This document shows positions 11,609 through 37,453 of a stretch of 64,000 bases of DNA, one piece after another. The DNA is from Simkaniaceae bacterium (lineage in GTDB: Bacteria > Chlamydiota > Chlamydiia > Chlamydiales > Simkaniaceae), in the NCBI GenBank assembly GCA_050248615.1, contig JBFWSA010000002.1, positions 1 to 64,000 of the forward strand. The letters are read 5' to 3'. Under the pieces are notes generated by a model that saw only the letters and a list, made by a program, of their open reading frames with translations, searched no databases and had not been told where the DNA came from. Position 1 is the stretch's first letter, and every line of letters begins with the position of its first letter. Position numbers and translations under genes: made by a program.

Positions 11609-12649
11609 ATGAGTCAGGTTCAAAATAATGTTTTACACAATTTTATTCAGCCAGCCCTTTTTATGACTGCAGCTTACTTTGCAGGAACAAAGCGCTTCAT
11701 TGAAACATTTCCAGGAGCCACACAAAATGGACTCCTCCTTTCTGCAGGAATCGGAAGTGTTTTTGCGTTAGGAAGCCAAAAATTTTCCGATGACACAGAA
11801 ACCCCCTATCATAGCTTAGCGCGCGCTATCATCAGTTTAGCTCTCGGCGCCATCGTCGCCCCTTATGCTGCCAAAGCCCTAAAAGGACGCGCCGATATCT
11901 CCCTGCCCGCAGCTCTCCGTTTAACCCTGTTAGAATCTGTTTTCGCTGGAGCCCTTGCTGGGATCTCTTCCCAAATGCAAACGACAACGCCCCCTCCCCC
12001 TAATCCCACCTTGCAAGAGATCCATGCCGCCTTTGTTAACGAAAACGCTAAGTGGCAAGCCCTCTCGAAAGAAGAGCGTAGCGCAAAAGCCAAAGCCTTC
12101 TATGACGCAGATCTTCTTCCGATTGCCACTCGTAGCGACCTAGAGTTTGATGTTGATCCGTTCATCCTAGACCCCGATTTTGATTCCTTAAGTGCTAACC
12201 AACTCCGTTGGTACTACCTCACCCCCCATATCTGGTCCAAGCTTTCGATAGAAAAGCTCTCAGAACTCGCTCAAGCCCTCTGCGATCAAAACATCACTAC
12301 TATTGCTGCCATGAACCCAACCTTCCGCGATGCCCTCTCTTGCAAAGATGGTCCTCTAGACCTGCTGCACCCTTACTATATTGAGCACCCTTTAGAGTTT
12401 TGGGCCTTCCCTAATTTTCAATTCTTTCAAGTTTTACTTGAAAACGAGAGAGGGAAAATACCCAAAATCAATGACGCTCTCAAAGCTAGCACACCAGAGA
12501 TCATTGCAGAGCTCAGCGAACGCGCTGTGCGGGATCTCCATGAACGCTTAGAGGGGAAAAAACTCAAAACTAAATGGGAATCTCTCCAGCCTAATCAGCA
12601 AGAAGCTTTCAACTTAAGATTTGCTGCATTGGGGCTCAAACAGCTCTAA
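11609..12649 (+). CDS. Array paralogue 1: Inc-like putative membrane effector
   Basis: MSQVQNN start, four hydrophobic segments, FPGATQNGLLL and KGRADIS motifs shared with the six neighbours. Confidence 0.6.
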   Translation: MSQVQNNVLHNFIQPALFMTAAYFAGTKRFIETFPGATQNGLLLSAGIGSVFALGSQKFSDDTETPYHSLARAIISLALGAIVAPYAAKALKGRADISLPAALRLTLLESVFAGALAGISSQMQTTTPPPPNPTLQEIHAAFVNENAKWQALSKEERSAKAKAFYDADLLPIATRSDLEFDVDPFILDPDFDSLSANQLRWYYLTPHIWSKLSIEKLSELAQALCDQNITTIAAMNPTFRDALSCKDGPLDLLHPYYIEHPLEFWAFPNFQFFQVLLENERGKIPKINDALKASTPEIIAELSERAVRDLHERLEGKKLKTKWESLQPNQQEAFNLRFAALGLKQL

Positions 12650-12657
12650 AATTTTTT

Positions 12658-12684
12658 AATCCCTGCGTGCAAACGCAGGGATTT
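12658..12684 (+). terminator. Intrinsic terminator
   Basis: AATCCCTGCGT-gcaa-ACGCAGGGATT. Confidence 0.7.
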
Positions 12685-12689
12685 CCCTC

Positions 12690-12718
12690 TAGACTTTTTC
12701 CTCTAATCTTTATATAAT
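12690..12718 (+). promoter_or_regulatory. Putative promoter of array gene 2
   Basis: TAGACT-N17-TATAAT. Confidence 0.65.
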
Positions 12719-12753
12719 TCCCCTGATTTTCAACTAAACCCACGGGGACTAGC

Positions 12754-14625
12754 ATGAGTCAAGTTCAAAATAATACTTTACACAACTTCGTGCAACCAGC
12801 ACTGATCTTAGGATCTGCTTTTTTAGCAGGACGCTATATTGCGCACTTTCCAGGAGCTTCGCAAGGGGGACTTCTCCTAACAGCAGCTCTCGGAACAGGA
12901 ACTGCACTTGTGAGTCAAAAATGGGCTTCCGCTAACGAACCCCCTTTTTATAGCTTTATGCGTGTTACGGCTAGCCTGGCTTTAGGAGCCATCGTCGCTC
13001 CTTATGCTGCCAAAGCCTTAAAAGGACGGGCTGATATCGCGATGCCCGCAGCTCTTCGTTTTGCAGCTGTTGAAACCGTTTTAGCGGCTGTTTTAGCTGT
13101 TGTCTCTTCGCGCATGACATCCATGCACGCTGAGCATGCCAAATATGCTAATGATCTCACTGCTTGGAAAGCTCTAGAAGAAAAAGAGCGCACAGCCCTT
13201 GCAAAACAATTCTTCGCAGCCGATCTTCCTCCCCTTTCTCTAGAAAGTGCCGATCTGGAAGATCAAACGTTTGCAGATCAAAAAGCGTTCGCTCAACTGA
13301 CACCGAATCAGCTCCTATGGCATGCACAAATGCACCTCCATGTAAAAGACTATGAACCTGCAGACCTTTTTGCCCTGAACAGTGCCCTCCAAGCGAAAAA
13401 TCTCCCCTTAACCTTTGTGGAAGAAGCCCCTAGTCAAGATCTGATTGACTTTGCGAAAGAAAAAGATACCTGCATCACCCTTCTCCATACTTTCTTTACC
13501 CAGCATCCTGTGCTGTTTGCAAAGGGACAAGATGAGGATTTTGATGTGCATGATCTCTTTGATGGAAAAAATCCCATTCCTACTCTCCAAGACTATGTCA
13601 AAGCCCTTACGCCAGACGCAATCCGCACGCTCAGTCAAGTAGAGCTCAATGAAATCGTTAAAGGAATGGGAGGAAGACGTCCTCTCTTTAAAGCCAAAGA
13701 CCTTTCCATGGAGCAGATCCTCGTATTCAATGCGACAGCTCATGCACAAGGCGCTTCAAAGATTTGGATCGAGAACATCACTGAAGAGTGCGTAGCTATT
13801 GTAGAAACAAACGCCGCTGTCTTAGAGTGGGTCTACGCAGAGTTTTCCACTTCTCTTATTGCCTTTGGACGTATTGAAGAGGGCTTAAGAGATCGCTTAA
13901 ACGCCGCCTTTAGAGGAGCACAAAAAGGAGAACTCGCCCCTAACGAAAATCCTCAAGCCTTAACAGCTGCGGAAATTAAAGAACTCTCTTACCGCGATAC
14001 AGCTGCTTTAAAAGGTTTAATTGATAATAGATTGCGTTTATCTACAGAACAACTTGTTGCCTTAAATACAAGGGCTCATGAACACCGCATCTACACCACC
14101 TGGATCTGGCCCATCTCTCAAGAAGTGGTTGATTTAGTGAAGGCTGATCCTAGAACTTTAGCCTGGTGTGAAGCTGAGTTTCAGCGTTTCCCTGTAGCTT
14201 ATGCAGCGATTCCACAAGGTCTGAGAGATCAGCTAAACCCTCTCTTTCAAGCTCCGATTCAAGATGCTGCAGAGATTTTAAGAGGGCTAAAAGTGGGCGA
14301 TATCAACAGATTCAACCAACCAAACGCTTGGGATTGGCAAACATATTTTGCAGCCTATCCCGATGCTTGGAAGGGGCTTTCTAATGAAATAGCCACAGCC
14401 TTTGTAAATGCCTTTATCCGCAATAGTATTCAAATGTTGCCTTTGGACGATAGGGAGCTTGACATAGCTCGCTTACAGCTTCCTCGGGCAGACGCCGTCC
14501 CTGCTATAGAGGCTAAACATGGCAACAAGATCCGTTGGATCCTTGCGATTCATGCGAAGACAAACTTCTTGGATGACCAACAGCCCCTCTTAACCGCTCT
14601 TCAAAAAAGAGCTGGTGAACTATAG
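12754..14625 (+). CDS. Array paralogue 2: Inc-like putative effector with a duplicated ~110-aa internal unit
   Basis: Shared N-module; unit LS.EQ..xN..AH...WI..I..E.V..V...L.W..AEF...GLRD.LN present twice. Confidence 0.6.
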   Translation: MSQVQNNTLHNFVQPALILGSAFLAGRYIAHFPGASQGGLLLTAALGTGTALVSQKWASANEPPFYSFMRVTASLALGAIVAPYAAKALKGRADIAMPAALRFAAVETVLAAVLAVVSSRMTSMHAEHAKYANDLTAWKALEEKERTALAKQFFAADLPPLSLESADLEDQTFADQKAFAQLTPNQLLWHAQMHLHVKDYEPADLFALNSALQAKNLPLTFVEEAPSQDLIDFAKEKDTCITLLHTFFTQHPVLFAKGQDEDFDVHDLFDGKNPIPTLQDYVKALTPDAIRTLSQVELNEIVKGMGGRRPLFKAKDLSMEQILVFNATAHAQGASKIWIENITEECVAIVETNAAVLEWVYAEFSTSLIAFGRIEEGLRDRLNAAFRGAQKGELAPNENPQALTAAEIKELSYRDTAALKGLIDNRLRLSTEQLVALNTRAHEHRIYTTWIWPISQEVVDLVKADPRTLAWCEAEFQRFPVAYAAIPQGLRDQLNPLFQAPIQDAAEILRGLKVGDINRFNQPNAWDWQTYFAAYPDAWKGLSNEIATAFVNAFIRNSIQMLPLDDRELDIARLQLPRADAVPAIEAKHGNKIRWILAIHAKTNFLDDQQPLLTALQKRAGEL

Positions 14626-14646
14626 GGCTCTAAGGACCAATACAAA

Positions 14647-14677
14647 AAACCCTGGTGAAAGCCAGGGTGTTCTTTTT
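14647..14677 (+). terminator. Intrinsic terminator
   Basis: ACCCTGG-tgaaag-CCAGGGT followed by GTTCTTTTT. Confidence 0.6.
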
Positions 14678-14700
14678 AAAAACTTAAGGGGAGGACCCTC

Positions 14701-15897
14701 ATGAGTCAAGTTCAAAATAGTACTTTACACAACTACGTGCAACCTGCGCTTATTCTCGGATCCGCTTTTTTATCAGGACGTTTTATTGAGCACTTTCCAG
14801 GAGCTTCACAAGGGGGACTTCTCCTCACAGCAGCTCTCGGAACAGGAACTGCGCTTGTTAGTCAAAAAGGGGCTTCCGCTAACGAAACCCCTTTTTATAG
14901 CTTTATGCGTGTCACAGCTAGCCTGGCTTTAGGCACCATCCTGGCTCCTTATGCTGCCAAAGCCTTAAAAGGACGGGCGGATATCGCAATGCCCGCAGCC
15001 CTCCGTTTTGCGGCTGTTGAAACCGTTTTAGCGGCTGTTTTAGCTGTTGTCTCTTCGCGCCTGGCCCCTCAAGGTCCAGATCTTCAAGCCGAGCATACCA
15101 AGTATGCAAACGATGCAGGTGCATGGGAAGCGCTAACGGAAGAGGCCCGCACAACCCTTGTAAAGCAATTTTACATAGCCGATCTTCCGGCAATTGATCT
15201 CTCAGATGCTCCCATTAAACAGGAAACGTTAGCGCAGTACCGTGACTTTCCCCGCATGAGTGCCCATCAACTCTCCTGGCATATTGAAGAGGCTTATTAC
15301 ATTGTGGATTATGTACCCCAAGATCTTTTCGGGCTCAACCTTGCTTTAAAAAGCAAAGGGTTAGAGCTTGCTTTTGATGGAGAGGTCGATCAAGCTATGA
15401 TTGATTATGCTCAAGGAAAACCCGATTGCATCAACCTCCTCCATGAATATTACATGGAAAATCCTGTTGATTTTGTAATAGACTCCGAGGACTCTTTTAC
15501 GATTGGCGATCTCTTCGCGGGGAAACTCCCTATCCCCACACTCAAAGAGCACCTGCAAACCCTCGATGCACAAGAGTTCCGTTCTTTTAATCAGGACCAG
15601 CTTCAATGTATTTATGATGCCATTGAGGAGGGCTCTTCTCTGCAACAAAAAGATCTCACCTTAGCGCAACAAATCGCCTTTAATACAGAGGCGCATAGTG
15701 AAGGGGTCAACACCCTCCAGATCTGGCCGATCACCCAAGAAGTAGTAGACTTTATTTTAGCCGATGACGACACCCTAGAGTGGTTCCATACTGAATACAA
15801 GGAAAAGAGAGCGCAATTTGAACAAATTGAGAGCACCTTGAGGGCAACGCTTAATGCTCAATTCCTTATAAAAGGAAAAGAAGTCATTGTGACCTAA
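14701..15897 (+). CDS. Array paralogue 3: Inc-like putative effector
   Basis: First ~120 aa nearly identical to paralogue 2; one copy of the ~110-aa unit. Confidence 0.6.
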   Translation: MSQVQNSTLHNYVQPALILGSAFLSGRFIEHFPGASQGGLLLTAALGTGTALVSQKGASANETPFYSFMRVTASLALGTILAPYAAKALKGRADIAMPAALRFAAVETVLAAVLAVVSSRLAPQGPDLQAEHTKYANDAGAWEALTEEARTTLVKQFYIADLPAIDLSDAPIKQETLAQYRDFPRMSAHQLSWHIEEAYYIVDYVPQDLFGLNLALKSKGLELAFDGEVDQAMIDYAQGKPDCINLLHEYYMENPVDFVIDSEDSFTIGDLFAGKLPIPTLKEHLQTLDAQEFRSFNQDQLQCIYDAIEEGSSLQQKDLTLAQQIAFNTEAHSEGVNTLQIWPITQEVVDFILADDDTLEWFHTEYKEKRAQFEQIESTLRATLNAQFLIKGKEVIVT

Positions 15898-15930
15898 GCT
15901 CCCAGAGTTTAAGGAGGGGGTATATTTTAG

Positions 15931-15959
15931 TAGATTTTTTTTTCCCCCCTCTCTATAAT
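15931..15959 (+). promoter_or_regulatory. Putative promoter of array genes 4-5
   Basis: TAGATT-N17-TATAAT. Confidence 0.6.
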
Positions 15960-15985
15960 TCTCCCCAATTTAACGGAGGATTTTC

Positions 15986-17899
15986 ATGGCTAGCGTTCAA
16001 AATTCTTTTTTAAGTTGCAAGACCCTTTTAGAACCCACTCTCTATATGGGGCTCGCCCTTTTAGCAGGCTCTACCCGCCTGATTGAAGTATTCCCGGGTG
16101 CCTCTCAAGAAGGCCTCCTCCTAGCAGGAGGGATGGGAAGCGCGTCTGCACTCCTCTATAATCGGATGTTTCATCACGAAGAACATAGCTATTTCAGAAC
16201 CCTTCTAGGAAAGGCAACGCTGATTGCTTTTGGAACCCTCTGTACAACGCTTATCGCCAAACCCTTAAAAGGGCGCGTCGAAATCCATTTCCCTTCAGCT
16301 GTAAAATTTGCCTTTGTGCAGCTATCAGTGGCTACAGTAACCACCTACCTTCTGCAAGAATCAGAACTCCAGCGCAAACACCGCCTCTACTCGGGAGCAG
16401 AGCAAAAAGCATGGCGTGGGTTACCAACAGACGAGCTTACAGCTCTTGTAAAAGAATTTTACGAAGGGGGCCTTCCCGCAATTAGCTTGTTAGAAGCACA
16501 AATTGGATGTGATTTCTTTGATCCCTATGACACTCTCATGGCGAATCTCCATCAGTATACTAAGGAGCAACTCAGCTGGTACCGGGAACTTCTTTCACAG
16601 GGTGGCTCTGATGAAAAATGCTTCTCTTTTATGAAGAGATGCACCGATGTCGGACTTCCGATGATTTTCTTCCCGATGGGTGAAAACGTGTATCACTTTA
16701 TCGAGAATAAGCCCCACTACATAGACTTAGTCTATGCGCAGTTTAAAGAAACCCCTATCTTCCCGTTTTTTTGTAAAGCAGACTTTACCCCTCTCTTCCA
16801 AGGGAAGCCTCCCCTTCCCTCTTTTGAAGAGGTCGTGAAAACTCTGGATGTTTCTCAAGTAGAAGGAATGGACCCTCAAGTGGTGATCATGTGGCATCAC
16901 GCCTTTAGAGATCAGAACCCTATCCATTGGGGCTATCTAAGTGCACCGATTCAGACCGCTTTTGTAAAGCGGTTCTTTGAGCTACAAGCCACACCCCCTA
17001 ACCTCTTCTTAGACCCTTCCCTAGATAAAGGGTGGCTGATTACCTACCTCAACGAAACGCCCGATCTGAGCAAGCATGTTTTTAATCTCGAATGGCTCCA
17101 CGTATTACTCCGAGAATCTCCCCAAGGGATCTCGTTTAAAAAAGTCTGCTATCTGAATCAAAATTGGCCAGGTATCATCCCTTATCCCATCACGCCTACA
17201 TGCATTGCCAAAGCAAAAGAAGATCCTGCACTTGTTGAGACGCTTAAGAGACAGTTTCAACATGCTAAATATGGAAACGATTTTGGCTTTCTTCAACTTC
17301 CCCTAGAGCAGCAAGAAGAACTCAGACAGGTGTTTGATGACCAAGCTTACCTTCTCCCCTACCGGGTAACACCAGAGCTCATTACGCAAGCAGAACAACA
17401 ACCACAACTTCTGGACCAGTTAAAAGGGCTGTTTGATCGAGGGATGGGAAGAGATTATGGATTGTTTGATTTGAGCCCCCCTGATCAAGAGAGATTACGC
17501 TTAGCTTTCGGTCATGATGCCTACCTTCTTCCCCAAAAATTGACCTCTGAGGTGGTTGCATCGGCACTGGAATCCCGAGAACAGCTGCAACTCCTAATGA
17601 GGCAGTTTCAAAGGAGTGAGCACCACTTTGATTTTGGGTTCTATGCCCTCCCCCTTGAAGACCAAATCGCTTTACTGAAGGCCTGTGACACGCCTCAGCA
17701 CCTTCCCCCTTTCCAATTATCGCCCGCGTTAGTCGCAAAAGCAGAGCAAGATCGAGATATCTTAGGGTTTCTTATCAACCAACATTATCATGCAGGGGGA
17801 AGAAACTTTGGCTTTAAAGAATTGCCTAAGGAAGACCAAACAAAATTAAGAGCCCTGTTTGAAGCTGAAAGGGCTGCACACTACTTACCTAAAGAATAA
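15986..17899 (+). CDS. Array paralogue 4: Inc-like putative effector with four ~60-aa QF..D[FY]GF repeats
   Basis: Shared N-module; repeats anchored at NDFGF, RDYGL, FDFGF and RNFGF. Confidence 0.6.
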   Translation: MASVQNSFLSCKTLLEPTLYMGLALLAGSTRLIEVFPGASQEGLLLAGGMGSASALLYNRMFHHEEHSYFRTLLGKATLIAFGTLCTTLIAKPLKGRVEIHFPSAVKFAFVQLSVATVTTYLLQESELQRKHRLYSGAEQKAWRGLPTDELTALVKEFYEGGLPAISLLEAQIGCDFFDPYDTLMANLHQYTKEQLSWYRELLSQGGSDEKCFSFMKRCTDVGLPMIFFPMGENVYHFIENKPHYIDLVYAQFKETPIFPFFCKADFTPLFQGKPPLPSFEEVVKTLDVSQVEGMDPQVVIMWHHAFRDQNPIHWGYLSAPIQTAFVKRFFELQATPPNLFLDPSLDKGWLITYLNETPDLSKHVFNLEWLHVLLRESPQGISFKKVCYLNQNWPGIIPYPITPTCIAKAKEDPALVETLKRQFQHAKYGNDFGFLQLPLEQQEELRQVFDDQAYLLPYRVTPELITQAEQQPQLLDQLKGLFDRGMGRDYGLFDLSPPDQERLRLAFGHDAYLLPQKLTSEVVASALESREQLQLLMRQFQRSEHHFDFGFYALPLEDQIALLKACDTPQHLPPFQLSPALVAKAEQDRDILGFLINQHYHAGGRNFGFKELPKEDQTKLRALFEAERAAHYLPKE

Positions 17900-17922
17900 C
17901 CAAATCCTGTGAGGACGTTATT

Positions 17923-20900
17923 ATGAGTTCTGTTCAACCCCCTCTACTCAGTCGCAAAACCTTAGTAGAACCCGCTCTCTACATGGGGCTCGCCCTATTA
18001 GCAGGCTCTACTCGCCTGATTGAAGTGTTCCCGGGGACTACGCGTGGAGGCCTCCTCCTAGGGGCGGGGCTTGCCAGCACCTCCTCATTGATTTATAACC
18101 GCACCCTGCATGATGACAGTCATCACTACTTCAGAACCCTTTTGGGAAAAGCAACCCTCATCGCCTGTGCAACCCTCTGCACCACTCTCCTTGCCAAATC
18201 CTTAAAGGATCGTGCCTCTATTTCTCCTCTTGCAGCAGCAAGATTAGGGGCGTTACAAGTGGCGATTGCGGCGGTAACGACTTTCCTCAATCAAGAATCA
18301 GAACTTCAGCGCAAACACCGCCTCTACTCGACTACAGAGCAAAAAGCCTGGCGCCGTTTAGAACTAGAAGAGCGCTCAGACCTTGCTAAAGCATTTTATG
18401 ATGCTGGACTCCCTGCCATCTCCCTTTTTGAGGCTCCCATCGACCCTAGGGATCGCTTTGATGAAATGGAAGAGGTGATGACAAATCTCAATCGCTACTC
18501 CAAAGAAGAACTCAGCTGGTACCGAGAATTCACAGAGTTTCATGAGACAGAGACATTCTTCCGTTTTGCTACCCGGTGTGTCGAACTGGGACTCTCCCCT
18601 CCCCTTCTTGAGCACTGCCGTGGGTACATTGAGGATTGTATCGAGGAAAATCCAGCTTACAAAGCATCTCTCTACCAATGGTTTCAAAACGACCCCCTCC
18701 TTTATCTTAGCAATCATTTAGACGTTGCCCGTTTATTCCCAGATAAGCGCCCCCTTCCCTCCTATGAAGAGGTTCTCAAAACTCTCGATGCTTCTACAAT
18801 CCCAGCCCTCCCCCCTGAAAAACTTAACGCCTGGTATCGCTGGTTCCGCGATCGGGGAGGTTGGGACGCCCAAAGCGAACCGGTGCGGACTGCATTTGTT
18901 CAACGCTTTGTCGAATTCGACGCCATGCATCCAGAAAGGCAGTTTATAGCCTTACCAGGAGATTTAACTTGGTTTAGAATTTGGTTTAAAAATCTTACCG
19001 ATGAAACTTTAAGTGAGCCCCCCTCAAAAAGTATGCAAGCGTGGTGCGTAGCACTCCTCCCCACCTTAGATCCCCAGCCCGAAATCCCTGCAGACAAAGC
19101 TCTCGCACTATTTGCCAAATACCAGATTGCCCTTCCTTTAGAGCTGACACCCGAACTCGTAGCTATTGCTGGTGATACAACTTCTGAACAGGGAGCGCGC
19201 GTTCTAGCCCATCTGCAACAGCAGTATCAACATCGAGACTATGAAAACGATTATGGCTTCTCGAAGCTTTCCTTTGCCGAGCAAAAAGCTCTTAACGCTG
19301 CCTTTGGGCACAAGGCTGACCATCTGCCTGGCTATACCCTCACTGCTGAAGTCGTTGCAGAAGCGCAGCGAGATAAGGAGCTGCTCCGCTCTTTAAAAGG
19401 ACAGTTCGGCTATTATGCCCACCACAATGACTACGGCTTCTCGAAGCTTTCCTTTGCCGATCAAAAAAACCTCAAAGGACTCTTTGGAGACGAAGCAGAT
19501 CGTCTCCCTGGCTACACTCTCACTGCTGAAGTCGTTGCAGAAGCACAGCAAGAAGAAGGACTTCTTACCTCTCTTAAACAACAATTTCAGGGCTATGGGG
19601 AAAAGGATTACGGTTTCTCAAGCCTTTCTTTTGCGGATCAAAAAGCCCTCAAAGTTCTCTTTGGAGAGGACGCAGGTCGCCTCCCTAAATACCATCTAAC
19701 GGATGATGCCGTTGTTGCTGCCACCACAGATCCCAAACTTCTTGCAGCCCTTATAGAGCAATTTACTCAACATCGCTGGGACAACCGCGACTACGGATTC
19801 TCAGAGCTTTCGGCTCAAAATCAAGTAAAACTTAAAGAATTATTTGGAAAGCACGCACAATCCCTACCCTCTTACCCCCTTTCTCATGACCTCATTGAAC
19901 TCGCTCAAGGTAACGCAACGCTTACTGACTCTCTAAAAGCTCAGTTTAGAAATCGGTATGGGAGAAGAGAAGATTATGGTTATTCTGAACTTGACTTTGC
20001 CGATAAAAAAGCCCTCAAAAAACTTTTTGGCTTAGAGCAAAATCTTCTCCCTCCTTATCCCCTCTCTCATGACCTCATCGCAGCAGCTCAAGGGGATGAG
20101 GAACTCATAGCCTCTCTAAATGCCCAGTTTGAACATAGAGAGAGAGAAGATTGTGGCTACTCTCAGCTCACACTGGACGATCAAATCCTCTTAAAAACCT
20201 TAGTCGATGAAGATGCTCAGCGAAACCTTCCCCCCTTTCTTTTAACAGCTGCATTAGTAGAAAAGGCTCAGGGAAGCCCTGATCTTGTTGCTTGCTTAAA
20301 AGTACAATTTACCCCTTCTCGTTATCATCAAATGAGTGGGGATTTTGGTTTCCTAGCTCTTCCTGAAGTCACTCAGCAAACCTTACGCGTTTTATTTGGT
20401 GATGAGGAAGAACTTCTCCCCTTGCGCATCACTTCAGCAATTGTTCAAGAAGTCCAAAGCAACCCCGCTCTCGTTAAGCGCTTAAAGAACCAATTTGCGC
20501 ATGGTGGTGGAAACGACTTTGGATTCTTTGCTCTTGACCCTATCGAACAAGCGACCTTTAGAAGTTGTTTTGTTGAGAATAGATCTGACTGGAGCGATCC
20601 CTTTAGAGCCTATCACATTCCTTACCCCATCACCCGTGAGTTGATTCAAGAGCAAGAAAGAAACTTTACCCTTAAAGACCATCTCATAAATCAGTTTGAG
20701 AACCGAAATCCTCAATATGATTTTGGCTTTTATGCGCTAGATCTCCCCACACAAAATAGACTCAGAACACTCTTTGGAGAGGACGCTACTATCCCCTATC
20801 AGTTCACCCCCGAGTTACTCCGTGCAGTACAAGGAAGCCCCCAGCTTAAGGACGCCCTTACTCGACAATTAGGAGGTTATGGAAGAGAGGATAACACTAG

Positions 20901-21171
20901 CTTTACCCAGCTCTCTATCCAGGATCGCCTCGCTTTCATTGCGCTTTATAAAGATGAGGAATACCCCCCCCATTTCCCTCCTTTCCAACTCACAGCCGAA
21001 GTGGTGACCCTTGCGGAAAGAAACCCCGATCTCGTTGCCCTTCTAAAGAATCAATTTGGTGGATGGGGACAGAAAGAGACCTATGGATTTCAGGAACTCT
21101 CTAAAGAGCGACGCGGGAAACTCAGAGAACTCTTTGGTGAAGAGGCCTATCGACTTCCTGAAGAAGTGTAA
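17923..21171 (+). CDS. Array paralogue 5: Inc-like putative effector with eleven ~60-aa repeats
   Basis: Shared N-module; 11 repeats; DNA near-identity at a 180-nt offset (19261 vs 19441, 19331 vs 19511). Confidence 0.65.
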   Translation: MSSVQPPLLSRKTLVEPALYMGLALLAGSTRLIEVFPGTTRGGLLLGAGLASTSSLIYNRTLHDDSHHYFRTLLGKATLIACATLCTTLLAKSLKDRASISPLAAARLGALQVAIAAVTTFLNQESELQRKHRLYSTTEQKAWRRLELEERSDLAKAFYDAGLPAISLFEAPIDPRDRFDEMEEVMTNLNRYSKEELSWYREFTEFHETETFFRFATRCVELGLSPPLLEHCRGYIEDCIEENPAYKASLYQWFQNDPLLYLSNHLDVARLFPDKRPLPSYEEVLKTLDASTIPALPPEKLNAWYRWFRDRGGWDAQSEPVRTAFVQRFVEFDAMHPERQFIALPGDLTWFRIWFKNLTDETLSEPPSKSMQAWCVALLPTLDPQPEIPADKALALFAKYQIALPLELTPELVAIAGDTTSEQGARVLAHLQQQYQHRDYENDYGFSKLSFAEQKALNAAFGHKADHLPGYTLTAEVVAEAQRDKELLRSLKGQFGYYAHHNDYGFSKLSFADQKNLKGLFGDEADRLPGYTLTAEVVAEAQQEEGLLTSLKQQFQGYGEKDYGFSSLSFADQKALKVLFGEDAGRLPKYHLTDDAVVAATTDPKLLAALIEQFTQHRWDNRDYGFSELSAQNQVKLKELFGKHAQSLPSYPLSHDLIELAQGNATLTDSLKAQFRNRYGRREDYGYSELDFADKKALKKLFGLEQNLLPPYPLSHDLIAAAQGDEELIASLNAQFEHREREDCGYSQLTLDDQILLKTLVDEDAQRNLPPFLLTAALVEKAQGSPDLVACLKVQFTPSRYHQMSGDFGFLALPEVTQQTLRVLFGDEEELLPLRITSAIVQEVQSNPALVKRLKNQFAHGGGNDFGFFALDPIEQATFRSCFVENRSDWSDPFRAYHIPYPITRELIQEQERNFTLKDHLINQFENRNPQYDFGFYALDLPTQNRLRTLFGEDATIPYQFTPELLRAVQGSPQLKDALTRQLGGYGREDNTSFTQLSIQDRLAFIALYKDEEYPPHFPPFQLTAEVVTLAERNPDLVALLKNQFGGWGQKETYGFQELSKERRGKLRELFGEEAYRLPEEV

Positions 21172-21182
21172 AAAAATCTGAC

Positions 21183-21214
21183 TCCAGCTCTAAATCTTTA
21201 GAGCTGGATTTTTT
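21183..21214 (+). terminator. Intrinsic terminator
   Basis: TCCAGCTCTAAA-tc-TTTAGAGCTGGA followed by TTTTTT. Confidence 0.75.
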
Positions 21215-21265
21215 CTTAGGATTTCTTTACACTATGTTAACTCTTAAAACTAAGATTTGGGGATC

Positions 21266-30020: not shown

Positions 30021-30893
30021 TCAAGAAAACTGTGCTAAGATTTGCTGCCAGCGGGGAAAGATTCGGGATTTGTCTTTAATATAGAGGAGAATCTCTTCAA
30101 GAGACTTGGTAGCAAATAGCTGAATTTCAAGATCCGTTAAACGAATGGCAAGGGGAAAAGGATCTTTTTGCTTAGGAAAAAGATTTTGGAGGGTTTGGAA
30201 GGTTTTCTTCAAAATCCGCTGGTCTTTTAGGAGAAGAACACAGCGAATAAAGCAATCAGCCAGGGGGAGAAAGGGAACCCCTTTGAGTAAAAGGAGAAAG
30301 GGGGTATTCCAGAAGAAAAGCGCTGCGACTTGCATAGCCAGTGAAATAAAAATCAGTGAGATAAAGAATAACACTTGGCTGGGTTTGCGATAAAGGGGGC
30401 CTAAGAAGCGGCGCCATTTTTGGGGAGCGTTCCAGTAGGCTAGGATTTCTTCAAAACGGGGTTCCTGAAAGGCAACTCTTAGAGCATGCACGGCTTCATG
30501 CTGAAGGACTTCCTCTTGAGTATAAAAAAGAAAATGCCCTTTTTTAAACCCTTTGCGGAGTTGAACGATAGGAAAAGAAGCCCCTTCAGGTGTGGTAAAA
30601 GTCCAGGAAGCTCCCCCTTGCCAAGGAAGGAGACGGTGATTGGAATAGTGTAGAGGAATCCAGTGGAGATGGGCGCGGAGTCTATTGAAATCAGCGATTA
30701 GGGGTCCATATTTTTGATCTTGTAATAGCTGCTGAGAGTGGGTTTTCAAGATGTCAAGCCGTTTGACAAAGGCCTCTTCTGTCTCATTAGGACCAGGAAT
30801 GAACCCCTCTTCCCCCAAAGCCTTCAGCGCCTCTAACCCTATCATTTTTTCAATTTGCGGATCGACCGGTATTGGACGATGAGACAGGCGCAC
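30021..30893 (-). CDS. Hypothetical membrane protein with HExxH motif
   Basis: EEVLQHEAVHALR...FEEILAY; two C-terminal hydrophobic segments. Confidence 0.6.
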   Translation of the reverse strand: MRLSHRPIPVDPQIEKMIGLEALKALGEEGFIPGPNETEEAFVKRLDILKTHSQQLLQDQKYGPLIADFNRLRAHLHWIPLHYSNHRLLPWQGGASWTFTTPEGASFPIVQLRKGFKKGHFLFYTQEEVLQHEAVHALRVAFQEPRFEEILAYWNAPQKWRRFLGPLYRKPSQVLFFISLIFISLAMQVAALFFWNTPFLLLLKGVPFLPLADCFIRCVLLLKDQRILKKTFQTLQNLFPKQKDPFPLAIRLTDLEIQLFATKSLEEILLYIKDKSRIFPRWQQILAQFS

Positions 30894-31924
30894 AACACCA
30901 AATTGGCCGATAAGATGACAGCATTAAAAAGGAGAATTTGATTATTTTTACGAGAGATAGAAATCAGGCGGCGTCTCACATTCCGTTCAAACTTGGTTTC
31001 GTCTTCAAACCATGTCGAAGCGTAGTAGTGATGTGCAAAAAGGGCAAAGTCATCATCAATCCGGTTAAAATAGGCAGCAGGGAAAATGATATCTGTATTT
31101 CCCTCTTGATCGGCTCCACTTTTCACGGCATCTTCAAAGGCAATAAAAGAGCGCTGAGCTACGCGGTAGATAATCGACTCTTTATCATCTCCTGGATAAG
31201 CCATCCCCACCTCATCCCATCTCTCTTTAACCCTGTCGATCGCTTTTTGCATCACAGGATGCCCAGGTTTTACACCAATGATGTTATTATTAACCGAGAT
31301 CGAGCTACTGAGAATGGGTTTATGGGGGGGTTCTAAACCACAATAGAGATCAAAGTTGTAGTGAAAAGGGGAAAAAGCCTTGAAGCACCGTACATCATGG
31401 TCAACGTAAAGCCCTCCCTCTTGATTTAAGATTTCATACCGAAGGAGGTCTGATTTTTCTGCATAATTATCGGACTGCTGAAAGCAATCTTTCAGTTTGG
31501 TAAATTTAAAATCTGTTACAAGATGCATCTCCATGGAAGGGTGGGGAAGGGCTCGGCGGCGATCTGTCCAGAATTTAAAGGTCCAGTTGGGGTGGTGCTC
31601 AACCCATGAGCGGACATTTTCAAGCGATTCTTTGGGGAAAGGGTTGGGTCCTAACCAAATAAAGTGAATGACTTTAGGAATTCTCACCTCTTCTTGCTTG
31701 AGAAACTGCAGGTCTTTGTTTTTGGTGTAAATGTCTTTAAAGCGATGAATGTTTTTAAAGTCTTCATGGGTCTCGACAAATTTCCACACACTTTTATTCG
31801 ACCCCATCAAGGTATTGAAATCATCGGACTGTTTCACGTGGCTTTTCTTTTCACACGCAGTCATTAAAATGATGAGGAGAATGATGAAGAGGATTTTTAA
31901 ACCCAAACTTAAAGGAGCTTTCAT
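30842..31924 (-). CDS. GT32 (DXD, Och1/Sur1-like) glycosyltransferase, lipoprotein-like
   Basis: IPKVIHFIWLG and SDLLRYEIL..EGGLYVDHD motifs; lipobox-like LMTAC; C-terminal TM. Confidence 0.85.
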   Translation of the reverse strand: MKAPLSLGLKILFIILLIILMTACEKKSHVKQSDDFNTLMGSNKSVWKFVETHEDFKNIHRFKDIYTKNKDLQFLKQEEVRIPKVIHFIWLGPNPFPKESLENVRSWVEHHPNWTFKFWTDRRRALPHPSMEMHLVTDFKFTKLKDCFQQSDNYAEKSDLLRYEILNQEGGLYVDHDVRCFKAFSPFHYNFDLYCGLEPPHKPILSSSISVNNNIIGVKPGHPVMQKAIDRVKERWDEVGMAYPGDDKESIIYRVAQRSFIAFEDAVKSGADQEGNTDIIFPAAYFNRIDDDFALFAHHYYASTWFEDETKFERNVRRRLISISRKNNQILLFNAVILSANLVLCACLIVQYRSIRKLKK

Positions 31925-33030
31925 TGTGTCTTCTTCCTTTTAATCTCTCTGTTAATGAGAAAGTATAAGCTAAAGCACCCGATCAATGCAAATAGACTCA
32001 TTAATTCTACATGGATGATCTTGGCATCTCGGTTACGGAGATGGCGCAACATTTTTTGAAAAAACTGCTCGTTGGGGGTTTCATTTAAATTGTTCCAGGT
32101 CGTCCCATAGAGGTGCTCGGAATAAAAACCGGGGAGGTTCCCCTTGGGATAAAAGTAGCAGGCTGGAAAAATAATATCGGTATTTCCGGGTTGATTGAGC
32201 CCTTTTTCAAAGGCATGGGTGAAAGCAATCAGTGTCCGGTGGGTCACACGTCGTGCTTGCACCAGAGGATCAGATGCGGAAAATTTTTCTGTTACGGCAT
32301 CCCACCTTTCTAAGACTAGGCGTATCGTTTCCTGTAAAGCAGGGTGGCGGGGTTTTGCTCCAATGACACCAATCCCTGCAGTGAGGGCTAGGGAATCAAT
32401 TTCCTCATGAGGCATTTCGAGTCCTGCATAAAAATCATAACCCGTATGGAGGCCGTGGAAAGGGCGGACACAAGCCGCATCATGATCGATATAAAGTCCC
32501 CCTTGTTGATAGAGGATCTCATAACGCCAGATATCAGCTTTTTCTCCCCAGTTTTTGGATTCTTTAAATTTATCCTGCAGAAATTCAAAGTGAAAATCTT
32601 TTAATTGCTTCACTTGCATCCCATTACAGGGGGGCAAACGTTTTCGATCTGTCCAAAAGTTGAATGTCCAGTCTGGATGATGGGCCATCCATGTACGGAT
32701 GTTTTCAACCGATCCAGAGGGAAAAGGTTTAGGTCCAATCCAGATCAGATGGATGATTTTGGGAATTTTAAAACTAGGGTTAGAATTAAACTGATGTTTG
32801 TAATTTTTTTTGTAGAGAGTTTTAAAACATTCAAGATCTCGATAATCACGCTTTGTTTGGATGTAGTTCCAATTGCTTGTATCACTTCCTTCTAGTTTTT
32901 CAAAAGAATCTTCCAGGGTCAAATGAGAACTTTGCTCTCTTTTGTTGCTGTTGCTCTTCATATTCTGAGAGAATACGTAGAAAAAAACGAGGGGGCAAAC
33001 AAATAGGAGGATAAGGATTTCTTTTTTCAT
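31921..33030 (-). CDS. GT32 (DXD) glycosyltransferase, paralogue of 30842-31924
   Basis: IPKIIHLIWIG and ADIWRYEILYQQGGLYIDHD motifs; N- and C-terminal TM. Confidence 0.85.
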   Translation of the reverse strand: MKKEILILLFVCPLVFFYVFSQNMKSNSNKREQSSHLTLEDSFEKLEGSDTSNWNYIQTKRDYRDLECFKTLYKKNYKHQFNSNPSFKIPKIIHLIWIGPKPFPSGSVENIRTWMAHHPDWTFNFWTDRKRLPPCNGMQVKQLKDFHFEFLQDKFKESKNWGEKADIWRYEILYQQGGLYIDHDAACVRPFHGLHTGYDFYAGLEMPHEEIDSLALTAGIGVIGAKPRHPALQETIRLVLERWDAVTEKFSASDPLVQARRVTHRTLIAFTHAFEKGLNQPGNTDIIFPACYFYPKGNLPGFYSEHLYGTTWNNLNETPNEQFFQKMLRHLRNRDAKIIHVELMSLFALIGCFSLYFLINREIKRKKTQ

Positions 33031-34882: not shown

Positions 34883-37453
34883 ATGGGAAAAGGAAAAACC
34901 TTAATCATCGTTGAGTCTCCGACTAAGGTAAAGACTCTCAAAAAATTTTTGGGTAATGCTTACCATGTGGAATCTTCGGTAGGTCACATCCGCGATTTGC
35001 CTACGCGGGGCTTTGGAATTGATCTGGAAAATGACTTTGAGCCTCAGTACGAAAATCTTCCTGATAAAAAGGATGTGATTGACAAACTGAAGAAGACTGC
35101 AAAAGAATGCGATACCGTTTATCTCTCTCCCGACCCCGACCGCGAAGGGGAAGCGATTGCATGGCATATTGCACATATTTTGCCTAAAGGCCCTACTGTC
35201 CAGCGTGTGACGTTCAATGCGATTACTAAAGATGCTGTAAGTGAAGCCCTCAAGCATCCCCGAAAAATCGATATCTCTTTGGTGAACGCCCAACAAGCGC
35301 GTCGCTTACTCGATCGTATGGTGGGGTATAAAATCTCCCCGCTGCTCCAAAGACGGATTAAACGGAGTGGATCGGGGGGAAATCTTTCTGCAGGGCGTGT
35401 GCAGTCCGTTGCTTTAAAGTTAGTTGTCGATCGAGAAAAAGAGATTGAGGCCTTTGATCCCGTTGAATATTGGAATATTTCTGCAACTCTTCAGCAAAAC
35501 CCTAAAGAACGCTCTTTCATAGCAGCCTTATACTCTATTGATGGAAAAAAGGTAGAAAAAGAGGCCATCAAAGGAAAAGATGTCGCCCTTATTCCCAACG
35601 AAATCGAAGCCAAAAAGCTCGTGACCGCTCTGAATCATGCCACATTCAAGGTCTCCCACGTCGAAAAGAAAGAAAAGAAGCGCCACCCCGTTCCTCCCTT
35701 TATCACATCTACTTTGCAACAAGAGGCGAGCCGACACTATGGTTTTGCGGTATCCCGTACGATGGGAATTGCTCAAAGCCTCTATGAAGGGGTTGACCTC
35801 GGATCAGAAGGGACAGAGGGATTAATCACCTATATGCGTACCGATTCTGTGCGCGTTGAGCCAGAAGCAATTAATAATGTGCGTAAACTCATCGATGGAG
35901 CTTATGGCAAAGAGTACCTTCCTCATAGTCCCAAGGTCTATTCTACAAAGAAAAGTGCGCAAGATGCCCACGAAGCAATCCGCCCCACGAATTTAAATCA
36001 CCCTCCCGATGTGATCAAATCCTACTTAACGCCTGATCAATACAAACTCTATGTACTCATTTGGAGACGCTTCCTCGCCTCTCAAATGAACCCTGCTATT
36101 TATGATACAGTTTCCTGTGAGATTGTGACCGACCAAAAACTGGTGCTGCGCTCTTCAGGTTCGATTATCAAATTCAAAGGGTTTCTAGCGGTTTACGAAG
36201 AAAAAGAAGACCGCGATGAAGAGGAAATCATGCAAAGTGATAGTGACAGAATCCTCCCTCCCCTCGTCGAAGGACAAGTGCTCAAGCTGCTTGAAGTGAA
36301 TTCTTCTCAATCCTTTACCAAACCCCCTCCTCGTTTTACAGAAGCCTCTCTTGTCAAAGAACTGGAAAAATCGGGAATTGGGCGCCCTTCAACTTACGCT
36401 TCTATCATGAATAAAATCCATAGCCGTGCCTATACAACAAAAGAACGTCTCGCTCTAAAACCCACTGAGCTAGGTAAAATCATCGCACAAATGCTTGAGA
36501 ATCACTTCAACCTCATCATGGATATCAAATTCACCGCACGGATGGAAGATGATCTGGATGAAATCGCAGAGAGTAAACAAGACTGGCGAGAGTTTTTAAA
36601 AGGATTTTGGGAAAAATTTGTCCCTGTTCTCGAAAAAGCAGAGAAAGAGGCCTTTGTCCCCAAGCTCATGACCGATATCAACTGTCCCAAATGCGGGAAT
36701 AAGCTCCAAAAAATCTGGTCCCGTGATAAATATTTCTATGGCTGCTCCAATTACCCCGATTGCAAGTTCACTGTTTCGATCGAGGCTTTAGAGTTTAAGA
36801 AAGAAGATTACGCTGACAATTTTGACTGGGATCAACCCTGCCCCAAATGCTCGTCCCCAATGAAAATTCGTTTTGGGCGGTTTGGAGCCTTTTTAGGTTG
36901 TGAGCGCTACCCAGATTGTAATGGGATTGTGAATATTCCTAAAAAAGATGAGCCCCTTCCTGAAGAGATGCCCAAATGTCCCGCGGTAGGATGTGATGGG
37001 GATATTAAGCAACGGCGCAGTCGGTTTGGGAAACCTTTTTTCAGCTGCTCTAATTACCCTGATTGCGACGTGATCGTTAACCAGTTGGATGATTTAGAAA
37101 TGAAATATCAAAATCATCCGAAAACACCCTATGTAAAGAAAACGAAAAAGGGTGTGAAGAAGGTTGCTGCTAAAAAAGCTACAAAGAAAAAAACGGCTAA
37201 AAAGAAAACAGCAGCAAAAGGAAAGCCCCTCGCCCTCTCTCCTCAACTAGCAGCTGTTGTCGGAGCAAAGGAATTATCACGTCCTGAGGTCACCAAAAAA
37301 GTGTGGGAATATATCAAGGCTAAGGAGCTTCAAGATCCCAACAATAAACGCCTGATTGTTCCGGACAATAAGTTGGAAAAAGTGTTTGGACACTCCGATC
37401 CCGTCGACATGATGAAATTGCCCGGGATCTTAAGTAAACATATCAAGAAATGA
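34883..37453 (+). CDS. topA: DNA topoisomerase I with Zn-ribbons and C-terminal SWIB domain
   Basis: IVESPTK, DPDREGEAI, SAGRVQS, LITYMRTDS, CPKC repeats; SWIB domain LSRPEVTKKVWEYIK. Confidence 0.98.
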   Translation: MGKGKTLIIVESPTKVKTLKKFLGNAYHVESSVGHIRDLPTRGFGIDLENDFEPQYENLPDKKDVIDKLKKTAKECDTVYLSPDPDREGEAIAWHIAHILPKGPTVQRVTFNAITKDAVSEALKHPRKIDISLVNAQQARRLLDRMVGYKISPLLQRRIKRSGSGGNLSAGRVQSVALKLVVDREKEIEAFDPVEYWNISATLQQNPKERSFIAALYSIDGKKVEKEAIKGKDVALIPNEIEAKKLVTALNHATFKVSHVEKKEKKRHPVPPFITSTLQQEASRHYGFAVSRTMGIAQSLYEGVDLGSEGTEGLITYMRTDSVRVEPEAINNVRKLIDGAYGKEYLPHSPKVYSTKKSAQDAHEAIRPTNLNHPPDVIKSYLTPDQYKLYVLIWRRFLASQMNPAIYDTVSCEIVTDQKLVLRSSGSIIKFKGFLAVYEEKEDRDEEEIMQSDSDRILPPLVEGQVLKLLEVNSSQSFTKPPPRFTEASLVKELEKSGIGRPSTYASIMNKIHSRAYTTKERLALKPTELGKIIAQMLENHFNLIMDIKFTARMEDDLDEIAESKQDWREFLKGFWEKFVPVLEKAEKEAFVPKLMTDINCPKCGNKLQKIWSRDKYFYGCSNYPDCKFTVSIEALEFKKEDYADNFDWDQPCPKCSSPMKIRFGRFGAFLGCERYPDCNGIVNIPKKDEPLPEEMPKCPAVGCDGDIKQRRSRFGKPFFSCSNYPDCDVIVNQLDDLEMKYQNHPKTPYVKKTKKGVKKVAAKKATKKKTAKKKTAAKGKPLALSPQLAAVVGAKELSRPEVTKKVWEYIKAKELQDPNNKRLIVPDNKLEKVFGHSDPVDMMKLPGILSKHIKK

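Follow-up and report, generated by a model that had tools for sequence, protein, structure and literature searches.

A predicted three-helix solenoid repeat in two members of a lineage-restricted chlamydial protein family

The repeat arrays and their predicted fold

Helical repeat arrays are a main route by which intracellular bacteria bind host proteins, and the host-binding arrays recognised so far come almost all from a few families (ANK, TPR/Sel1, LRR and ARM/HEAT). This article describes a new unit type for the catalogue of such solenoids, found in a stretch of 64,000 nucleotides (nt), hereafter the window, that forms the first part of contig JBFWSA010000002.1 of a Simkaniaceae bacterium (assembly GCA_050248615.1; 2.04 Mb in 69 contigs, 42.9% GC, 96% complete), a genome that is chlamydial by its gene content. 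Seven tandem paralogous genes occupy positions 11609-23776 on the same strand (Table 1). All seven products share an N-terminal domain of about 125 amino acids (aa) with four moderately hydrophobic helices and a helical middle domain of about 275 aa with invariant Trp, Pro and Leu positions; in two of them, here called p3 (637 aa) and p4 (1082 aa), these are followed by a tandem array of a unit of about 60 residues. The best-supported account of the cluster is that of a lineage-restricted chlamydial family of membrane-anchored proteins, two members of which grew a new three-helix alpha-solenoid.

The p4 array consists of 11 consecutive units (aa 404-1082, nt 19132-21168) of 58-67 aa each and the p3 array of four consecutive units (aa 398-637, nt 17177-17896) of 58-65 aa each, the units being delimited by a D-[YF]-G-[FY] motif and the preceding L-P. 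A preliminary description of this DNA had reported the same copy numbers at the same places, and its rough consensus is reproduced by that computed from all 15 units, xPPYxLTxELVxxAxxxxxLxxxLKxQF-[loop]-DxGFxxLxxxDQxxLxxLFG; its numbering of p4 as the fifth paralogue fits if the open reading frame (ORF) at 11609-12649 (E 1.5e-71 to the family profile) is counted first. Each unit begins with helix a, LP-x-[YF]-x-[LI]-T-x-E-V-V, which is followed by helix b, ending in L-K-x-Q-F, and by a loop of 6-10 residues, beyond which lie a conserved D-[YF]-G-[FY] turn and a long helix c (D-Q-x-x-L-x-x-L-F-G). Mean column identity over the 15-unit alignment is 40%, and the pairwise identity of individual units to unit 2 is 27-71%. 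A hidden Markov model (HMM) built from the 11 units of p4 alone recovers all four units of p3, with domain E-values of 4.5e-18 to 1.2e-09 (Z = 12,973 ORFs), and independent metagenome proteins carry one to five units (e.g., P0003, E 2e-102, and P0005, E 7e-52).

At the DNA level, the arrays are much less regular. The closest match is that between p4 units 2 and 3, with 76% identity across the unit, and at an offset of 180 nt the longest exact run is 26 nt, with 81% identity over the 120 nt from 19249 to 19368; Tandem Repeats Finder, run over 14000-25000 at a score of 30, reported no array in the genes. The repeat is visible at the protein level and as patchy DNA families only. Since DNA identity is 76-81%, the longest exact run is 26 nt and Tandem Repeats Finder returned nothing, the earlier statements that repeats 1 and 2 are near-identical in DNA at a 180-nt offset, and that this marks a recent expansion, were both too strong.

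The loops differ markedly from the scaffold that holds them. All 11 p4 loops listed previously were found, loop 10 alone differing, and only in its boundary (GGYGRED rather than GGYGRE), and their described richness in His, Arg, Tyr, Trp and Gly against a conserved scaffold is borne out by counts: these five residues make up 58 of 105 loop residues (55%) and 106 of 772 scaffold residues (14%; Fisher p 1e-19). His is 8-fold enriched in the loops (11/105 vs. 10/772), which contain no Leu, Ile or Val. Across the family, insertions and deletions in the unit also fall mainly in the loop, which measures 6-10 aa here and up to 17 aa in P0005 and is bracketed by conserved aromatics (Q-F before it, D-[YF]-G-F after it). 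The p4 array as a whole is acidic, with a net charge of -30 and an isoelectric point (pI) of 5.1, and 10 of its 11 loops have a net charge of +1 or less.

AlphaFold2 modelling of p4 units 2-5 with a small family alignment gave a predicted local distance difference test score (pLDDT) of 88.4 and a predicted template modelling score (pTM) of 0.81. Each unit in the model has helices of 7-9, 10-12 and 17 residues and a non-helical loop, and a one-turn helix at the GF-x-x-L motif lies between the loop and helix c. In the full-length p4 model, which has a pLDDT of 74, the segments below 50 coincide with the variable loops. The array is predicted from these models to be an all-helical solenoid with three helices per unit and one low-confidence, non-helical loop in each, which agrees with the helical solenoid presenting one variable loop per unit that had been proposed from the sequence.

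Searches with sequence models did not place the repeat in any described family. Whole p3 and p4 matched no ANK, TPR, Sel1, LRR, HEAT, ARM, PUF, PPR, DUF7104 or other repeat family of Pfam at E<=1, and the 15 single units, searched at the same limit, gave nothing better than E 0.028 and nothing at domain level, so that the earlier judgement by eye that the unit is not ANK, TPR, LRR or Sel1 is upheld. NCBIfam holds no family for p3 or p4, and a profile search of PDB sequences gave no match, its best row being bacterioferritin (E 0.02) over a 27-column helix-turn-helix. The label Metallophos_C (PF14008), which two p4 orthologues, P0001 and P0002, carry as a precomputed Pfam annotation, was considered and set aside as an identity for these three proteins, this 63-position profile having no domain-level match. 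The whole-protein score is 35.7 bits against a cut-off of 23 bits, with no stretch passing alone, and single units matched in 2 of 15 cases (best E 0.11). The label is best treated as a false positive because the score sums eleven weak matches to the D-Y-G-F region.

Structural comparison gave weak matches only. For the model of units 2-5, the best Foldseek row was the Pumilio RNA-binding domain 3h3d (E 0.023, probability 0.97, template modelling (TM) score 0.35), and VIA-align found no chain at Z>=5 among 48,161 representative chains or 994 Foldseek-ranked chains, its best row being the MgtE N-domain 8gpv (Z 4.7, root-mean-square deviation (rmsd) 4.3 over 103 residues, or about two units). 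In the VIA-align benchmark the best Z of a helical model is typically near 14, and by that measure the model is unusually isolated structurally, although weak matches prove neither difference nor a new fold. The ESM Atlas gave no usable match; with the full-length model, Foldseek returned generic HEAT/ARM solenoids only, at a TM score of about 0.1, and VIA-align results were dominated by the N-terminal four-helix bundle. The repeat is described nowhere in the chlamydial inclusion-membrane and tandem-repeat literature covered by a narrow check. On every sequence comparison made, the predicted three-helix unit of about 60 residues is a previously undescribed repeat type, and no structural comparison gave it a clear relative. 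Proteins of this kind are at present annotated as 'hypothetical', or wrongly as Metallophos_C, because no sequence profile recognises the repeat and its structure prediction, though confident, has no neighbour at Z>=5. A defined construct for structure work is offered by aa 468-708 of p4.

Distribution and variation between strains

The repeat is confined to a very narrow range of organisms. It was found in 2 of the 12,973 six-frame ORFs of its own genome, in 2 of 61 relatives and in 2 of 400 genomes sampled across the phylum, the second positive genome being of the same genus and having a single weak unit that adjoins the same helicase gene. At this same-genus locus (L002, G001:C23:1438-3860), beside a pcrA/uvrD-type helicase, family members have single degenerate units only, and the first reading frame, read by eye, is apparently interrupted by a stop. 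Among 1.84 billion representative proteins, 13 matched the repeat; the family architecture is present in nine, whose unit numbers range from 1 to 11. The remaining four (P0009-P0012, with zinc-finger-like, HET plus DUF7104, and ankyrin features) were set aside as chance or analogous matches, being eukaryote-like and resembling helix a only. Two of them, P0010 and P0012, are fungal-type HET-domain proteins with 16-17 DUF7104 repeats of 31 aa; the start of helix a has its counterpart in their motif L-P-[VI]-T-x-E-V-V-x-A-A, and the positions that follow A-A-G-N are likewise variable in them, a likeness that probably reflects convergent helix capping. A hydrophobic N-terminus is present in seven of the eight full-length relatives checked, P0005 being the exception. 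Metagenome scans with the 1082-aa p4 and with P0002 found no relatives, nor did a scan of genome contigs with P0003.

Near-identical DNA occurs in runs of 14 studies, which comprise landfill, freshwater, wastewater, biofilm and sludge metagenomes and two runs labelled as single organisms. The strain contigs preserve the reading frames, the only exceptions being 1-nt indels that offset each other where depth is low, and because of this and of the recurrence in 14 studies p3 and p4 are real, maintained genes. The indels concern two contigs, X9 and X13, both of low depth, in which a 1-nt insertion is followed 5-7 nt later by a 1-nt deletion (18542-18549, in the p4 middle domain), representing either a local change of frame that is at once restored or a fault of assembly. 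In one RNA-seq run, X15, labelled as a single organism ('organism B'), contigs are at least 99% identical to 16285-16809, 18160-18975 and 20165-20320, a hint of host association and possibly of transcription, DNA carry-over being possible.

Strain contigs were obtained from 4 of 24 listed runs (X5, X9 and X13 from DNA, X15 from RNA), and comparison with these and with orthologous proteins shows that the arrays change quickly from strain to strain: whole units are gained or lost, patches are replaced in mosaic fashion and loop residues are substituted. Orthologue P0004 is short of exactly one 58-aa unit, in register, and so has three units where p3 has four. Within p3, 27 of the 34 differences of X5 fall inside 17207-17481, one of two mosaic patches (Table 1), and within p4, 17 of the 48 amino-acid differences from P0001 fall within aa 634-669, at the other patch. 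The 3' 1243 nt of p4 contain 45 differing sites (3.6%), compared with three sites in the first 1209 nt, and there are about 27 amino-acid changes per 45 nucleotide changes in this 3' part; in the strain comparison, 24 codons changed nonsynonymously and 12 synonymously. Since synonymous and nonsynonymous changes rise together, recombination or gene conversion is as likely a cause as selection. Over a longer distance the loops have diverged faster than the rest: relative to orthologue P0002, 27 of 79 loop residues (34%) have changed compared with 85 of 600 scaffold residues (14%; 2.4-fold, p 3.5e-05), and the N-terminal and middle parts have changed at 20 of 403 positions (5%).

The gene cluster and its surroundings

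The coordinates of the cluster are given in Table 1, in which the family HMM is a profile of the first ~400 residues of the family.

Table 1. Features of the paralogue cluster, with positions in the window
Feature	Position	Strand	Details
Paralogue 1, 346 aa	11609..12649	+	N-terminal hydrophobic and middle domains, no repeat; family HMM E 1.5e-71
Paralogue, 623 aa	12754..14625	+	No canonical repeat; family HMM E 4.3e-139
Paralogue, 398 aa	14701..15897	+	No repeat; 5' 300 nt 90% identical to preceding gene; family HMM
p3 gene, 637 aa	15986..17899	+	Hydrophobic N-terminus, middle domain, 4 repeat units
p3 units 1-4	17177-17353, 17354-17527, 17528-17701, 17702-17896	+	HMM domain scores 71-88 bits
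Mosaic patch, p3 units 1-2	17207..17481	+	~10% nt divergence between strains; rest of gene well under 1%
p4 gene, 1082 aa	17923..21171	+	Hydrophobic N-terminus aa 1-124, middle domain 125-403, 11 repeat units
p4 N-terminal four-helix hydrophobic domain, aa 1-124	17923..18294	+	Kyte-Doolittle and AlphaFold2
p4 units 1-6	19132-19323, 19324-19503, 19504-19680, 19681-19863, 19864-20046, 20047-20226	+	HMM domain scores 66-88 bits (all 11 units)
p4 units 7-11	20227-20415, 20416-20616, 20617-20790, 20791-20973, 20974-21168	+	
Mosaic patch, p4 unit 4/5 boundary	19824..19929	+	104-nt block, same length, strongly diverged in X5, X9 and X13
Terminator-like hairpin	21183..21208	+	11 pairs and T-run just 3' of p4 stop; consensus scan only
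Paralogue, 403 aa	21257..22468	+	No repeat; family HMM E 5.9e-150
Paralogue, 403 aa	22565..23776	+	No repeat; 5' 300 nt 90% identical to preceding gene; family HMM

Three adjacent pairs of paralogues are evident from identity over 300 nt at their 5' ends (12746-13045/14693-14992, 90%; 21266-21565/22574-22873, 90%; 15995-16294/17932-18231, 71%), which suggests pairwise duplication or homogenisation of the 5' end encoding the membrane-anchor region. Paralogue 1 matches no Pfam family at E <= 1e-2; residues 13-121 give a sub-threshold match to the NCBIfam model NF007311, PTS cellobiose/arbutin/salicin transporter subunit IIBC (E 7.1e-05, 21.5 bits, cut-off 722). A search with a repeat-less paralogue returned six homologues, none with a name. 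Part of the middle domain recurs in the C-terminal half of the 623-aa paralogue, where profile positions 284-399 match a second time, weakly, at aa 405-507. This paralogue gives only sub-threshold matches to the repeat HMM; by eye, it has W-P-I-[ST]-Q-E-V-V-D... segments resembling a loop-less cousin of the repeat. That the repeat derives from elements of the middle domain may be entertained as a weak lead, direct alignment of the repeat profile with the middle domain by hhalign giving probabilities of 8.6% and 3%. Consensus scanning alone placed terminator-like hairpins 3' of most cluster genes and none within the 23-nt gap between p3 and p4.

Elsewhere in the window, a long glycan-synthesis cluster (28490-57818) encodes GT2, GT4 and NodZ-like transferases, a Wzy_C ligase-like protein, a nucleotidyl transferase, epimerases, asparagine synthase, a radical SAM/SPASM protein and an O-methyltransferase with WG repeats. 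At 30842-33030 (-), two adjacent paralogous glycosyltransferases of 360 and 369 aa have a DXD sugar-binding region and some similarity to the TcdA/TcdB glycosyltransferase model, which is limited to its first ~38 positions and in which no single stretch scores above threshold. Two further ORFs, 58734-62459 (-; 1241 aa) and 42103-44001 (+; 632 aa), match no Pfam family at E<=1e-5, and the former matches no NCBIfam family either.

Candidate functions and known systems

The interpretation that we hold to be somewhat more probable than its competitors taken together is that p3 and p4 are membrane-anchored proteins resembling the chlamydial Inc proteins, exported by a type III system and displaying a host-binding solenoid in the host cytosol. 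In such a scheme the conserved residues of the unit would form the core of the stack, and the loop, stapled at both ends by conserved aromatics, would be free to vary. The type III system would export the protein and the four-helix domain would anchor it in the vacuole membrane, so that the acidic solenoid would extend into the host cytosol and may there bind one or more host proteins through its row of variable loops and its variable helix surfaces. The arrays would be diversified between strains by whole-unit gain and loss, by patch replacement through recombination or gene conversion, and by loop substitution. We infer binding of host protein at the vacuole surface as the most likely function because of the loop chemistry, the acidic scaffold, the turnover between strains and the chlamydial setting, Tyr, Trp, Arg, His and Gly being typical of protein-binding hot spots and of the complementarity-determining regions (CDRs) of antibodies.

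The anchor and the genome supply the case for an Inc-like protein. AlphaFold2 places the helices of the p4 N-terminus at 11-29/31-35, 41-62, 69-93 and 102-122, that is, as two helix pairs, the first (11-35/41-62) with a connector of five residues and the second (69-93/102-122) with one of eight; the 19-residue Kyte-Doolittle maxima of the second pair are 1.6-1.7. By these helices and this hydropathy, the anchor has the layout of the operational Inc definition in PMC3048545. The genome, as expected of one encoding Inc proteins, belongs to a member of the Chlamydiae with a type III secretion system: it encodes a TopA-SWIB fusion (DNA topoisomerase I/SWIB; 34883-37453 (+), NF004966, 1389 bits, cut-off 868), which is a chlamydial hallmark, and one FHIPEP export-gate gene (736 bits). 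The anchor module recurs in 14 ORFs of the genome at E<=1e-3.

Several observations weigh against this interpretation. The hydropathy is modest, helices 1 and 2 reaching a 19-residue Kyte-Doolittle mean of only 1.0-1.4, and P0005 has the middle domain and repeats without the hydrophobic anchor. The loops of P0005 are, besides, longer and rich in Lys, Glu and Gln, so the G/H/R/Y/W chemistry is no constant of the family. The excess variability claimed for the loops holds between units and against P0002, the more distant orthologue, but not against the closer P0001, from which loops differ at 7 of 79 positions and scaffold at 39 of 600, with no significant excess; higher variability is, moreover, expected of any surface loop. 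Finally, a rough dN/dS (ratio of nonsynonymous to synonymous rates) of 0.5-0.6 indicates relaxed evolution and not demonstrably positive selection.

The array is then under net purifying constraint (dN/dS about 0.5), as would be expected if the proteins were not exported at all, the four-helix anchor residing in the bacterial inner membrane and the solenoid acting as a cytoplasmic or periplasmic structural or spacer element in the envelope or the developmental cycle. We consider this unlikely, although it deserves to be weighed before the other alternatives: export of p3 and p4 is deduced from context, and the structural matches of the N-terminal domain are to generic four-helix bundles only (VIA-align Z up to 9.0), among them WbaP (Z 7.9) and ABC-transporter membrane domains (Z 7.2-7.8). 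A lineage-restricted, tandemly amplified family with a fast-evolving C-terminus is, however, the typical pattern of a host interface and not of envelope housekeeping; the Inc-like layout of the anchor (PMC3048545) points the same way, and the occurrence in P0005 of middle domain and repeats without an anchor also speaks against an inner-membrane role.

Three further alternatives concern the loops. A modular nucleic-acid reader of the PUF, TALE or PPR type, in which each unit would read one base through its loop, is suggested by the Pumilio row that heads the Foldseek results, by the three helices per unit, as in PUF, and by the Arg, His, Tyr and Trp content of the loops. VIA-align gives PUF proteins a Z of 2.5-3.2 only, though, and no PUF, PPR or TALE model matches the sequence; the array, with its net charge, its pI and its scarcely basic loops, is acidic, and loops of 6-10 residues in units of 58-67 residues are unlike a fixed-register code. 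The analogy drawn earlier with the fixed specificity positions of TALE proteins fits badly because loop length is not constant and the array is acidic, and we regard a nucleic-acid reader as very improbable. No better are the prospects of a metal store or sensor with His, Glu, Asp and Tyr loops as metal sites: the enrichment of His and the weak database echoes, all of them metal-related (bacterioferritin at E 0.02, Metallophos_C and Metal_resist), would accord with it, but those matches lie below domain thresholds and on the helix-turn-helix segment, not on ligand residues, 4 of the 11 p4 loops have no His, no position of the loops is conserved as His, Asp or Glu, and the loops of P0005 are Lys-rich. 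Diversification of the loops by a diversity-generating retroelement, to which the confinement of variability within a conserved scaffold might point, can be practically dismissed because a search of the 96%-complete genome yielded no reverse transcriptase (PF00078), adenines are not preferentially changed between strains (X5 changes from A 26, G 25, C 16 and T 11), and strain differences cluster in patches that include scaffold residues.

If the Inc-like interpretation with host binding is taken a step further, the arrays might constitute a natural loop-display scaffold, a rigid solenoid whose CDR-like loops are retuned by unit indels and by patchwise gene conversion between units and between alleles for the capture of host proteins at the vacuole membrane. 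We put this forward as speculation that is more likely wrong than right; if it were true, bacteria would have in the array an equivalent, built on a new fold, of the ankyrin and LRR binders and similar variable repeat receptors, and a scaffold whose loops were binding determinants would be of interest to protein engineers. The family is in any case a candidate host interface of the environmental chlamydiae, whose effectors are largely unknown, its significance being bounded by its very narrow taxonomic distribution and by a source not in culture.

Among solenoids, the armadillo (~42 aa) and PUF (~36 aa) arrays are the most alike in plan, both being extended stacks of three-helix units. The p4 unit differs from both in its size of ~60 aa, its 17-residue third helix and its displayed loop of 6-10 residues, and no profile match connects them; designed armadillo proteins score weakly with VIA-align (Z 2.6-3.4). 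The tandem WY/LWY modules of oomycete RxLR proteins are likewise effector-type arrays of small helical bundles whose aromatic core is conserved and whose surfaces vary, but they come from a different kingdom, have no sequence similarity to the p4 unit and differ from it in helix count and connectivity; the alignment of one model unit with RxLR121 and RxLR19 has a Z of 4.0 (rmsd 3.2 over 54 residues), which is noise level for helical proteins. The N-terminal domain of MgtE, a right-handed helical superhelix, provides the best structural row, at a low Z, and unlike the p4 array it is a single regulatory module and not an expandable tandem array, with no sequence relation to p4.

Tandem repeats are also found in Inc-type genes themselves. 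The coding repeats of Chlamydia pecorum IncA and ORF663 are short and of low complexity, whereas the p3/p4 unit is modelled as a folded domain of 58-67 aa. Their number differs between strains (PMC3932018), and some Incs bear helical repeats, TPR being listed for CT484/CPn0602 in a table of Dehoux et al. (2011; PMC3048545). p3 and p4 differ from Inc proteins in having no sequence relation to any named Inc and a C-terminal repeat of a new type, and in that the Inc hydrophobic region is a single bilobed domain whereas theirs is four hydrophobic helices predicted as one bundle. They resemble Inc proteins (PMC3048545) in their chlamydial genome, their N-terminal pairs of hydrophobic helices with short connectors, their mostly alpha-helical remainder, their restriction to a lineage and their arrangement in paralogous clusters.

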